Below, piece after piece: positions 16,001 to 22,000 of a stretch of 64,000 nucleotides of DNA. The position numbers were made by a program. Every line of letters begins with the position of its first letter. The stretch's first letter is position 1. Origin of the DNA: a virus (Duplodnaviria > Heunggongvirae > Uroviricota > Caudoviricetes); IMG/VR virus record IMGVR_UViG_2529293141_000015, positions 1-64,000 of that record; one strand, written 5' to 3'.

Positions 16001-19000
16001 ATGTGGTCGGGGATGGGGTTAATTAAAGATTTACGTTGAAACCAAAGCGGGAAGACTTTTCTGATGTACGGGAAATATCCAGCAATTTACGGCGCATTTC
16101 TTCCGTCAGATGCTTGAAGGCGTTAAATTCGGCGACAGCGGCGTCAACGTTATAGCCTTTGCTGTGTAGCTCATTGAGGATGCGCATAGTTGGGCTTGGC
16201 ATATCGAAGAGCACGGAAGCATCAAGGCTGATAACCTTGCGATCAACATAGTTCATCGTGGCGTAGGGATGGTTATCTGAGAACCACGAGAGGGGGTAGT
16301 TGATGTTCATCGCAGGAGAAGACAGGGCCAGTTGTTTCTGTTCCCATAGTTGTTTTTCCATGCGATCGAATTCAGCAATGTAGGCTTCTTTGAAAGCAGC
16401 GGCTTTTTTACCAGTGAATCCCATCACCAGGAAGACGAATCCGTTTTTGGTGATTTGGTACATTGGGCGTTGTTCGCCTTTGGCGTCGGTGTAGGTAACG
16501 TCCGCAAAATTGCGGGCGTTAAATTCCGTAGAACAATCCATCAATCGGATTTTTTTTAAAACGTCGTCGTGCCGCTTGTCAAAAAATTCAGCAATAGCAA
16601 TAGACGTTGTGACAACGCGACCATTGGTAATGGTGATTTCAGGTTGAGAAAGGGCAGGGATAGTAGCCATAATGGCAGCCTCCTTGATTGGTGATTGAGA
16701 ACCACCGCAGGAGGTCCTAAGCTCGCTGGCGGTGGACTGTACAGGGTTAGGACTACTGGCAATCAAGGGAACCAGCCCGACCGAAGTCGGCCCCATACAG
16801 CCCACCATTGATAAGATGTGCGTGTATGTCGATACAAAAAAAGACGCTGGCGCGTCTGTATCGCCTCGATTGTCAGCGGGGCCCTAATCCCGACACCCGT
16901 TTTATAAGGTGTTCGCCAAATATAGCCCCGACATCACACGCAGTCAATACCGTCCTTTCTCGGAAATGCTTTGGCGGTGCCGCCTGCACCCCAAAACATT
17001 CCCTGTATTTGGTCAGCGCCAACTTCCTGCCAGTGTTGCCCGTTCTCACGCCGTTCTCGCTCTCGCGCGGGGATACTCTCTCATCGACCGGATCGCACCC
17101 GATGATACAGCACGTTTACGTGTAGGGGTCTAAACAGGTCATTGACGCTGTAAAGCTCCAGATTGTTAAAGAGCATTTTGCGGCGGGTTAAGTCGCGCCG
17201 TACGACTGATTTATGTAGCCCTGTGTAAGGGCGCGATGTTTCTGGCTTGAAATAAATATAACTTGCGGTGATTTTCATGTAAATACCGTTGGTGCTTTTT
17301 GAGGGCGAGAAATTATTACTTAACTGATTTTTAAAGTGATTTATTTTTTAAGGGGGCAGATAACAGGAGGGGATATGCAAAGAAAAACCCGGCGCATGGG
17401 CCGGGCTATTTATCTGGTCCTGTTCTCATTCAGTAGAGTAGGGGCCAAGAAATCGCACTCCGTTGAAGTGAATAAGATGAGAAGGTGCATCAGCCACCCA
17501 TACCTCTGTTTCCCATGCGATTTCACCAAGATATCGCCCCATGATGGAGCGATTTGGAAAAGCGGTCACATAGACAAGTCCGGCTGTTGATCCGGCAAAC
17601 AGCCTGGCAAGCTCAGCATGCCGCTTCCCATCAACCGGTCCATGACTGGTGACAGACTCAACCAGTAGCAGCCAGTTTTTCGCAGTAAAATGTAGCACCA
17701 CATCTGGCATTTTACCGTGTGAATCCACATCAACACCTAGCCCGGCCAGCAGTGGAGCGTCGAAGTAGCCCCACTTTTCGCCAGTGTCGCCAGCATAGAC
17801 CAGCACGCTACCCGGAGCAAAACGTGGGGCGAAGTCCTCTATTATGGCACGGATAAGTTCGCTGTGCTCGCCGGGACTGAGGGTTATTTGCTGGCCCGCA
17901 GCAATTTCAACAGGGATACGATTCTGTTCGCGCTCCTTAGCATAGCGGGTAACCAGCGTTTCACGCTCGGCTAAATAGGTTGCAAGGCTATCGTGCCATG
18001 CCGGGCTGCCGAAAGTGCGTAGCATGGACAGAGCAGCAGGTTCGATCTGATAAACAGCCTTCGGGCTGTTCACTGGGCGATCGGGCTTGTCCGGATTGTA
18101 GAGGGCTACTCCAGCAGCGCAGAACTGATGCATAGACTGGCGGCGGAATGTCTCACGAGTATTGGGTGCGTAGACCTTGCCGTAGTGCTCCCGAACCCAA
18201 TTCATGATTGGTGTAATGCCCACAAGCGGATTTTCCGCGTCGGCCCATGCTTTTCCCGGTGTGAGGTTCAGGAGTGCCAGCAAACACAAAGCAGAACGCT
18301 CATTCTGCTGCGCTCTGGGCAGGCCTAAGGATGCTATAATTTGCTGAGCGGCCTCAATATAATCATTTTGGTTGTTCATGCAGTCAGAGCTCCTAGCTTA
18401 GCGTCAATATGTTCTTGCGTGAGAGTTTCTTGTTGCATAGCCCACTTGCCAAGCTCTATCAGAGTGTCACGGCTTGGGTACTTAATCATCTTGAGGTCGG
18501 TTGCATTGACCTGTGTATGCCCGTTGAAGCGACGGAAGTACTTATCCACTGCGGTAGTGTTCAGGAACACGGCCAAGCCACGGGCCAGCGCCTCGGGTAA
18601 CCCATGTTTGTTCTCATGAAACACGTTCATGTGATTTTCAAATCCCAACACTGAATACTCACTGAAGGTAGCAGGATCAACGACGCTTGCTACCACTCGG
18701 CGCTTTTCCTCCTTCGACGAGAAACGACGCACCACACAATAAAAACCGTTCGGGTAAAGCCACTTTTCTGTCTCGTCGTTGCGCATGATTGCGTTGGGTT
18801 TCTTCAAACCTTCCACAGGCCAGACAGTGCTACTCATACTCAAATGGCTCGGGTAGATCAGGGGAACAGTTCCTTCTTCTGGCATGCTGCGCAAATGAGC
18901 TTTCAGTCGGAAATCAACTATCGGTCCGGTCGATACCTTCACGCCAATATCAGCCAGCGAACATTGTACGGCAGATGATAACTCAATGGTGCTTTTCTCG

Positions 19001-22000
19001 AGCGTGGTCGGCACATGAATAAACCGCTCCGAATCGTCCGGGTACACAATCTGGTCAAATGGGTGTTCGTAGGTGACCAGGTCAAAAAAGCTATCATCGG
19101 TCGAAGTTGTGACTGTAACAGCCTCCTGACGGCCTCCACGCTCCAGGCGGATGATAATATTTTCCTGCAACACATCGTCATCCCTGAAAGCTTTGCTACG
19201 TGATTCGAACAAATGAATATGGCGGATTGCTGCCCGCTCAAGTATGAAATTACGGAACGGACGGTAATACGGTCCGTTGCAGAAACTACGTGGGATTATG
19301 GCCACTATCTGCCCGCCAGGTGCAACCTCACCTACAGCCAGTGCAACAAAGGCGGAATACAGATTTACCGTCTCGATACCGACAGTGCGAAGAGCCTGCC
19401 GGTGGGCTGACTGGCTATTGATCTTCTTGTAAGGCGGATTAAGTATTGCATGGGTATAACCTCGATCCTGTAGACCTTCGGCGGTTGCCAGCTCAATATA
19501 ATCCCCTTCGATGATGCGGGGCGTCACTCTCCTGTACCCGGTTAAGTGCTTCGCAAGGTGACCACACAGCTTTTTGTCGATTTCGTAGGCTGTTGCCTCG
19601 ACAGACTCAAAGCCAAACTCGCCAACCAGCCAACGGTCGAGGAAGGCGCAAGACAGTGCGCCTAAACCAGCGCCTGCGTCCAGTAGACGGCAAGTTTTCA
19701 TTGTGCTCGGTGGAAACAAGGAGGCCATAAAACGGGCCACGCCAGAAGGCGTCATGAACTGGCCGAACTCTGCTTTGTGTTTACGCGCGGTACGGGGAGA
19801 CAGCTCGCGACGCACGCTGTCTGCGACGTCTAGCTTTTGAAGCATAACTAATCCTCTTTACGTGGCATGATGATGCCAACGTGCTTTTGACATCCTCCAC
19901 ATTCTTCAGGCGTGAAGGATGTCAAATCACTCTGTGAGCTCAATCAAAAGTCTCATCATTCCACTGCGATTTGATGACCTTTCCGACAAACTGGCAGTTT
20001 TCGTTACACTCAATCATGTCGAATCGTGGGTTGAGCGGCTCCAGGTACGCTTTACCGCTCTCACGAATGAATCGTTTGAAGGTAAATTCATCGCCGTTCA
20101 TTCGGGCCACGCAAAAATCGCCATCCTCGATTTCCCGTTCAGGGTCAACGAGTATCAGCATACCTTCAGGGAAGCTGGGTTTACCACCCTGCGGTGCGGT
20201 CATTGAATGCCCCTTGACCTCCAGCCAGAACGACCTGTCACTGGCTTTTGTGGTGGTGGAGATCCATTTAATCGCATCTTTTGCGGTGTACGAAATATCA
20301 TCCATTGAGAATGCGCCAGCTTGTACGCAGGAGAGTAACGGATATTCGTAAGCGGGGACACGAGTTAATGGCTCTTCAATTGCGAGCGCCATTTCTGCAA
20401 TAGATTTTGCCAGGCTGGGACTGAAATCTCCGACCTTTACATTCAGTATCTTAGCAAGCTGTGCTGCGTGGCTGGCATTTATGGCGTTGATGCCAGCCAT
20501 TAGCTGATTAACAGCGCTTTGGGTAACACCTAATTCATAGGCTAATGATTCCTGCGACAGGCCTAACTCTTTCTTTTTAGCGTTAAAAATACTTTTCAGA
20601 CGCTTGGCGTCTTCCAGTTGCTCAGGGGTTAACGGTTTCTTTTTCATGTTCATACCATATCACCTTTGGTTATATGTAATGAAATATCTGCGGTGTTGAC
20701 ATTTTAATAACTGTGCGTAATGATATGGGCATTTTGAAGGAGTCAGTTATGGCGATGAAAAAAGAGACCCTGGCTGATTACGTATACAGGTTCGGCCAAA
20801 AGAAAGCCGCTAAGGACTTTGGCGTGGCGCAGAGTGCAATCAGTAAAGCGCTTCTCGTCGGACGAGAAATATACGTCAAAACCTTTGATGACGGCACAGT
20901 TGAGGCGGAAGAGGTTCGTCCGTTCCCTGCGTTCGTAAGAGGCGATGATTAATCCTGGACACACAGCCCATCGGAGGTGTGAGTGAACAGGCAAATCAAA
21001 ACGGTTATGCCCGAGCAGTACTGTGATGCTGATCGGGACTGGATACAGGAGCAATTGTTACAGCTAGACCCGACCACCCGGGTAAAAATTGCAGCAGAGT
21101 ACGCGAGAGTGTACCAGGAAGAGTGGGACAAGGAGCCTGTATCGTTCAGGAAGGGCAACAGGGCAAGACGGAGCGCCAACACCCGGTTACGGGTGTATGT
21201 CCAGAAGTACGCGAGAGCCAGCCGTGGCTGGATGCTTTCGCCAGTAGCGGTACGGAAGTTTCCCCCGACACCATGATGGCGGTTAGTTGCGCTAGAGATA
21301 ATTTCAAGTGCAACTAATTTCCTGAAAGGAAGCGAGGAGGGGGTAAGGGGGTGGAGTCGTTGGTAAGGCCTGTATCCCTTGGCCTAGGCCAGAAGGCAGG
21401 TACATAGGTTAGGTAGATCACTGTATAAGCGCGCGATAGTTTCTGGTGAAATAATTATCGAGCTAACTATTGAGTGATAAACTATGTCAGCAGCAACCAA
21501 ATCGGCACTGATCCGTACACTGAGCACTGTACCACTGAGAACAGAGGAGCGTTACAGCTTTCTGGCTGATGTTGTAACGATCCTTGAGTCACAGGGGATG
21601 CATGTGGCAAGCAATGTCACAGTAAGAATCGATGGCAGAAATTTCCGTGTTGATATTCTCGCAACAGCAAAAACTGGTGGGAGTGTGGCTATCGAGATCG
21701 ATCGTAGCTCTCCGCGACCCCGCTCAGTCATGAAATTGCGTGAATTGGCACGTCGTGGCACTGAAGGCTTTGTGTTGCTTCGAATGCCAAAGAAACTGAC
21801 CAGTTATAGCGATGCTGGGATCGATATCATCCCGGCGAATGGCAAGGGGGCGTCATGCTGAAAATCACCCCAAACTTTGCTCAGGAGCGCGGTTTAAACC
21901 AGCTGCGGCACCAGTGGAAACAGCATCGCACGTACCTGATGTATGCACCCACTGGCTCTGGCAAAACTGGTCTTGCAGCATTCGTCACTGCCGGAATGGT

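Follow-up and report, generated by a model that had tools for sequence, protein, structure and literature searches.

An EcoGIII-type restriction-modification pair at the rexA-rexB position of a lambda-like prophage immunity region

What does a lambdoid prophage of the Shiga toxin (Stx) type carry at the place where lambda keeps its exclusion genes rexA and rexB? The question was raised by a 64,000-nucleotide (nt) stretch of viral DNA (IMG/VR record IMGVR_UViG_2529293141_000015, positions 1 to 64,000; hereafter, the window), for which a sequence-only reading had proposed a BsuBI/PstI-like type II restriction-modification (R-M) operon in that slot, co-oriented with the repressor gene cI. Our comparisons identify the methyltransferase (M) and the endonuclease (R) of the window as the EcoGIII system, a PstI isoschizomer, with the CTGCAG specificity assigned through identity with published proteins. 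Very probably, short-tailed Stx-type lambdoid prophages carry the pair as cargo within their immunity region, at the place of lambda rexA-rexB, where M would mark CTGCAG and R would cut unmarked incoming DNA, with cotranscription from the repressor promoter pRM as a predicted part of this picture. The elements of the unit are as follows.

20653 to 19940, minus strand: cI repressor, 237 amino acids (aa) (open reading frame [ORF] list and sequence; Pfam HTH_3 and Peptidase_S24).
19845 to 18376, minus strand: M.EcoGIII-type gamma-class N6-adenine DNA methyltransferase, 489 aa (motifs, Pfam, PADLOC).
18379 to 17426, minus strand: R.EcoGIII-type endonuclease of the BsuBI/PstI family, 317 aa (Pfam, SdaI structure match, family alignment).
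17407 to 17386, minus strand: intrinsic terminator after R (terminator scan and fold).

The ORF list and the sequence bore out the gene coordinates, the NPPY motif, the 94-nt gap and the stop/start overlap of the sequence-only reading, and the terminator that it had placed at 17381-17405 is essentially the one given here. The cI-M spacer covers 19846-19939, and the stop codon of M overlaps the start of R in an ATGA (18379-18376) that contains the ATG of R. M carries FMTP (aa 30-33), LDAGAGLG (aa 55-62) and NPPY (aa 136-139), the gamma-class order of motifs X, I and IV followed by the target-recognition domain. Pfam assigned it to the Eco57I-type N6-adenine methylase family, and PADLOC matched it to MTase_II (E 5e-248). 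The family of R had been left to a hidden Markov model search, and this search returned PF17728 (the helix-turn-helix [HTH] domain BsuBI_PstI_RE_N; E 1.2e-54) and PF06616 (the catalytic domain BsuBI_PstI_RE; E 4.6e-61), both approximately full length. With the PADLOC match of R to REase_II (E 1.6e-168), the two proteins were classed as a type II methyltransferase and a type II restriction endonuclease; NCBIfam contained no matching model for R. The SdaI structure 2ixs aligned with R over its full length (E 1e-77), and the MPD...E motif region is common to both. Alignment of R with 25 diverse representatives of the family (33-57% identical) showed that all 10 invariant positions, P225 and D226 among them, are conserved in R; at the near-invariant positions shown, such as E241, W289, T291 and E292, R has the most common residue. 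We considered whether R might be inactive, as it has a threonine in place of the lysine in the EAVK motif of SdaI; this was rejected, since the consensus of the family has threonine there and the identical enzyme has been reported to be active. No small HTH ORF that could encode a controller (C) protein for the pair was seen in the ORF list. Domains, motifs and conserved residues support the assignment of M and R to a BsuBI/PstI-family type II R-M pair.

Database comparison showed that this pair is a known one. M and R are 100% identical to ORF31 and ORF30, respectively, of P13374, the Stx2a phage of the O104:H4 outbreak, and R matches a protein record of strain C227-11 at 316 of 317 positions (sole difference, W203V). 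The 3.5-kb block from cI through M and R to the terminator is 99.9% identical in O104:H4 strain 2011C-3493. It was matched in 147 of 5,426 complete E. coli genomes and, at 95-100% identity (mostly at least 99%), in 98 phage records, 97 of which cover at least 80% of the block. Among these phages are P13374 and phiON-2011 (O104:H4), TL-2011c, VT2phi_272, PA2, PA8, Ss-VASD and many Stx2a-converting phages, and the genes of the block are mostly annotated there as BsuBI/PstI methylase and endonuclease. The R-M genes alone had matches in 139 genomes (134 over at least 80% of their length). R itself had 98 matches in the phage database, all at least 95% identical and all in Stx-type E. coli or Shigella phages; no homologue was found in that database outside this lineage. 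The impression of the sequence-only reading that the feature was uncharacterized did not hold. According to the passages of PMC6602927 that cite Fang et al. (2012), EcoGIII is a PstI-like type II system on an Stx phage that was characterized in the latter work; CTGCAG is both its methylation and its cleavage site, it confers protection from lambda-like phages, and it influences growth and the expression of approximately 1,900 genes in C227-11. Published data on EcoGIII and close homologues (99-100% identical) further show methylation of 98.8-100% of CTGCAG sites in O111 and O145 lysogen cultures and an approximately 10^4-fold restriction of plasmid entry by the cloned system. The lysogenic expression and the phage exclusion that had been predicted from the sequence were thus already documented for identical or near-identical proteins. 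Yin et al. (2015) had also noted where the cassette lies in PA2/PA8-type phages, namely, in the early regulatory region. The feature is therefore characterized and published, and it is not new; the parts that may go beyond published work are the exact correspondence of the slot boundaries to those of lambda and the idea of a single pRM transcript for cI, M and R.

To define these boundaries, the lambda immunity region was fetched and compared with the window. Over 236 aa, the repressor shares 61% identity with lambda cI (E 2e-109). The divergent neighbor of cI matches lambda-type Cro in Pfam (E 5e-34) and is 60% identical to lambda Cro. The flanking elements are listed here.

20654 to 20724: right operator (OR) region; the cI-cro spacer aligns with lambda OR (promoter scan and operator pattern search).
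20658 to 20674, in the OR region: OR3-like operator TATCACCTTTGGTTATA (palindromic pattern search and lambda OR alignment).
20696 to 20724, plus strand: pR-like promoter TTGACA-17-AATGAT (promoter scan).
Ending at 20654, minus strand: candidate extended -10 of pRM, TGaTATGGT (promoter enumeration; putative assignment).
17283 to 17255, minus strand: pL-like promoter TTTACA-17-TATATT, approximately 100 bp beyond the terminator (promoter scan).
17257 to 17273, in the spacer and -10 of the pL-like promoter: half-palindromic left operator (OL)-like site (pattern search; aligns under lambda OL1).

The terminator consists of an 8-bp GC-rich stem followed by TTTTCTTT. It reads CAAAGAAAAACCCGGCGCATGGGCCGGG in the window versus CAAAGAAAACCCGGCGCTGAGGCCGGG directly after lambda rexB, a close resemblance that was judged by eye, as MAFFT left the two out of register. 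The gene order of the immunity region equals that of the lambda annotation, with the R-M pair on the cI strand. Because the flanks (cI and OR, the terminator, and the OL/pL-like site) resemble those of lambda, the pair appears to fill exactly the rexA-rexB interval, as the sequence-only reading had suggested. M and R showed no homology to RexA or RexB; Pfam, PHROGs and PADLOC returned only R-M families. By its position, then, the pair is an analogue of Rex and not a member of the Rex family. The palindromic lambda-type operator pattern matched only once in OR and once in OL, and a k-mer comparison of OR and OL revealed no operator in common. Yin et al. (2015) found no operators in the early region of PA2/PA8-type phages, and a published analysis of this phage group identified neither cII nor cIII nor operators. 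In the window, the place of lambda cII is taken by a 97-aa ORF (20983-21276) of the same length, assigned to PHROG 852 with unannotated function; it shows no similarity to lambda cII.

Whether cI, M and R share one transcript depends on the 94-nt spacer. The terminator scan detected no terminator from the end of cI to the beginning of M, and neither the promoter scan nor enumeration revealed a sigma-70-like site of at least 9/12 there, the best match being 8/12. A promoter in the spacer was considered, and by enumeration none was usable. As there is no recognizable promoter of its own and no terminator after cI, the R-M pair is most likely transcribed with cI from pRM. With the candidate extended -10 of pRM, the cI mRNA would have little or no leader, as is the case in lambda. 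A single match spanning the R-M pair and the 3′ half of cI was found in 134 genomes, across two immunity types. The spacer contains two structured elements.

19886 to 19926, minus strand: 16-bp hairpin with no U tract (RNA fold of 19836-19950, z = -3.1).
19860 to 19882, minus strand: second short hairpin with a TGGCATCATCATGCCA core and no U tract, just upstream of the ribosome-binding site of M.

The 16-bp hairpin recurs in an O145:H28 variant with identical stem bases and one extra loop base, where the R-M genes are approximately 95% identical; it is absent from a variant that carries HicAB, in which homology to the window starts again at 19926. The hairpin may act in processing, stabilization or attenuation of the message. 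Several points weigh against the proposed picture of the locus. A strong and conserved hairpin in the spacer could attenuate or process the message, and weak or non-sigma-70 promoters may escape a consensus scan. The literature searched contained neither a cI-M-R transcript nor a comparison with rexAB. Moreover, the operator pattern has 4 matches in the whole window versus 1.7 expected, a chance level that 11 of 100 shuffles also reached, so that the operator calls rest on position and on the lambda alignment.

One alternative is that M and R are transcribed as a separate unit, read from a weak or unconventional promoter in the spacer and untied from the repressor promoter. The 94-nt spacer with its two conserved hairpins also contains a TTGACA hexamer (19925-19920) and several 8/12 promoter-like matches, and acquired cargo often brings a promoter, as does the HicAB cargo with its 12/12 consensus site. 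However, the 8/12 matches have poor -10 elements (GAATGT, CATCAT, GAGGAT) or, in one case, overlap the start codon of M. The missing terminator 3′ of cI argues against a separate unit too. The same assessment counted cargo as co-oriented with cI wherever seen, although HicAB is noted to lie in the opposite orientation. We consider a separate transcription unit unlikely and retain cotranscription from pRM. The two features that would have parted the pair from the repressor, a recognizable promoter and a terminator, were not found between cI and M, and the 317-aa protein was matched to restriction endonuclease families by Pfam and PADLOC.

In the proposed working of the system, M and R would be transcribed with cI from pRM up to the lambda-like terminator after R. 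In the lysogen, M would methylate the adenine of every CTGCAG in the chromosome and the prophage. R would cut incoming DNA that lacks this methylation, so that the lysogen would be protected from heteroimmune phages and plasmids beyond the reach of repressor immunity. Because M comes first and R starts inside its stop codon, protection should be established before restriction in a new lysogen. Methylation in lysogens and restriction of unmodified DNA have been published for identical or near-identical proteins.

Natural variants of the slot were then compared with the window. The immunity type of the window was found in 133 genomes, most of which carry the R-M pair, as judged from 134 full-length matches. 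In FHI_NMBU_10 (locus L002), cI is approximately 92% identical at the DNA level and the pL side is the same, while HicA, HicB and a small ORF replace window positions 17405-19925; HicAB is in opposite orientation with its own consensus promoter (12/12). Sequence shared with the window extends there up to 17404, i.e., into the terminator. In O145:H28 RM12581 and O103:H2 12009, the R-M pair and the C-terminal half of cI (17407-20351, 95%) are joined to a different cI N terminus and cro, and R is followed by an inserted Panacea-domain gene pair. In SCU-104 (locus L004), window positions 17743-19885 are deleted, which removes M and the N-terminal two-thirds of R. Each cargo module in these loci closes with a copy of the lambda-like terminator. 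The variants support the interpretation of the interval as a cargo slot. Near-copies of the terminator were located at 1971-1990 and 2968-2989 of sister locus L003, at 3084-3101 of L002 and at 17386-17407 of the window. They flank the cargo modules (R-M, Panacea-domain pair, HicAB) in sister prophages. Because the homology breakpoints fall at these hairpins, the comparison suggests that the terminators served as joints for cassette exchange.

The same variants bear on the question of what the pair is for. Many type II R-M systems are known to kill cells that lose them, and the pair could be chiefly a selfish addiction module: upon loss of the prophage or of M, methylation would be diluted and residual R would kill, with phage exclusion as a by-product. 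R is affected in every decayed variant inspected. SCU-104 has lost M along with the N-terminal part of R, ArgO145 has a frameshift in R alone, and PhiR12_3 and JNEC-KY177 retain only a fragment of R. The HicAB toxin-antitoxin genes in the same slot of another prophage and the Panacea-domain gene pair beside R in a third point in the same direction. On the other hand, real protection against phages and plasmids has been published, and EcoGIII is reportedly deletable, as implied by the expression comparison in the cited part of the literature. The two roles are not mutually exclusive, and the absence of a lone R was judged on the decayed variants inspected. Addiction as the chief role is thus possible but doubtful.

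A second proposal, which we regard as distinctly improbable, makes M the key product, an epigenetic regulator of host expression, with R only enforcing its retention. It would account for the effect of EcoGIII on approximately 1,900 genes and on growth in C227-11 that is stated in citing papers. That comparison, though, appears to have removed the whole system, in which case effects of DNA damage and the SOS response would not be separated from those of methylation. R keeps every family-conserved residue, and the inspected variants have a damaged R rather than a loss of M alone; both observations point to an active R. Defense of the lysogen by methylation and cleavage remains the preferred role of the pair.

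A fuller model goes further, and we see its chances as about even. In this model, cI, M and R form one pRM operon whose R-M expression would be strictly coupled to lysogeny, with transcription stopping at induction. The 16-bp hairpin would determine the proportions of cI, M and R or serve in processing of the message, and the repeated lambda-like terminators would be recombination joints that swap defense and toxin-antitoxin cassettes within the immunity region of this lineage of prophages.

The surroundings of the cassette are those of a wrbA-integrated prophage, since the window opens with the 3′ part of wrbA (1-579) and an integrase gene (576-1910); this agrees with the integration site that had been read from the sequence. 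No stx or tRNA genes were found between Q (25441-25974) and the nanS-p esterase gene (26629-28647), their usual place in Stx phages, and the prophage is therefore an stx-less relative of the O104:H4-type Stx2a phage. An STnc100 small RNA (sRNA) was detected by Rfam between Q and nanS-p (26312-26525, plus strand). The window also contains two copies of a module of isrK sRNA and C4 antisense RNA (16725-16947 and 5331-5513) that resemble the c4/ant module of P1 and the isrK module of Gifsy-1. Each copy immediately precedes an antirepressor/Rha-like ORF of the minus strand (16023-16808 and 4601-5278, respectively). The copy at 16725-16947 is directly downstream of the pL-like promoter and has a promoter-like site of its own (16947 to 16919). 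CTGCAG occurs 14 times in the whole window versus 19 ± 4 expected, which is not unusual. Post hoc, we observed that all 14 sites are in 23743-56234 and that none is in 1-23742, where 5 to 10 were expected; this left 23.7 kb comprises the integrase, the early-left genes, the immunity region and the start of the replication genes.

Prophage-borne restriction in outbreak-type E. coli shapes the entry of phages and plasmids into Stx lysogens and marks their methylomes, as has been known since 2012. To this, the present comparison makes small additions: the cassette replaces lambda rexAB between lambda-like flanks, sister prophages house toxin-antitoxin genes in the same slot, and candidate lambda-like operators are put forward for phages in which an earlier paper reported none. 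These additions would come as no surprise to a specialist, and the single-transcript model would be expected by analogy with lambda cI-rexA-rexB.

Among known systems, the nearest is EcoGIII of the O104:H4 Stx2a prophage (C227-11/2011C-3493; P13374), which has the same position in the same wrbA-integrated phage type; the window copy differs in that the stretch from Q to nanS-p lacks stx genes and tRNAs. PstI of Providencia stuartii and BsuBI of Bacillus subtilis, compared through Pfam domains and not by direct alignment, have the same two family-defining domains in R, a gamma-class N6-adenine methylase as M, and the CTGCAG specificity reported for EcoGIII. The window pair is set apart from them by its tandem order of M then R, the ATGA overlap, its location on a prophage and the lack of a recognizable promoter of its own. 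The closest relatives outside E. coli are fused M-R proteins of approximately 840 aa, 62% identical in the R part and 45% in the M part. Many of the closest such relatives of R (P0121, P0124, P0125 and others) are single chains of this length with an N-terminal methylase and a C-terminal endonuclease. The tandem overlapping genes may have arisen by splitting of such a fusion or may represent the state that preceded it. SdaI (2ixs) differs by an EAVK motif in place of the E(A/S)VT of EcoGIII and of most family members in the alignment. Its recognition site is the 8-bp sequence CCTGCAGG. The cargo of the sister prophages (HicAB in FHI_NMBU_10; R-M and the Panacea pair in RM12581) shares the flanks cI, lambda-like terminator and pL with the window but has other gene content and, in the case of HicAB, the opposite orientation and a promoter of its own. 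Lambda rexA-rexB, finally, are located like the R-M pair downstream of a homologous cI, on the same strand and upstream of a similar terminator and OL/pL. Both pairs are lysogen-expressed functions that exclude other phages; the two have no sequence relationship, and whereas Rex acts by abortive infection, the EcoGIII-type pair cleaves unmodified DNA.

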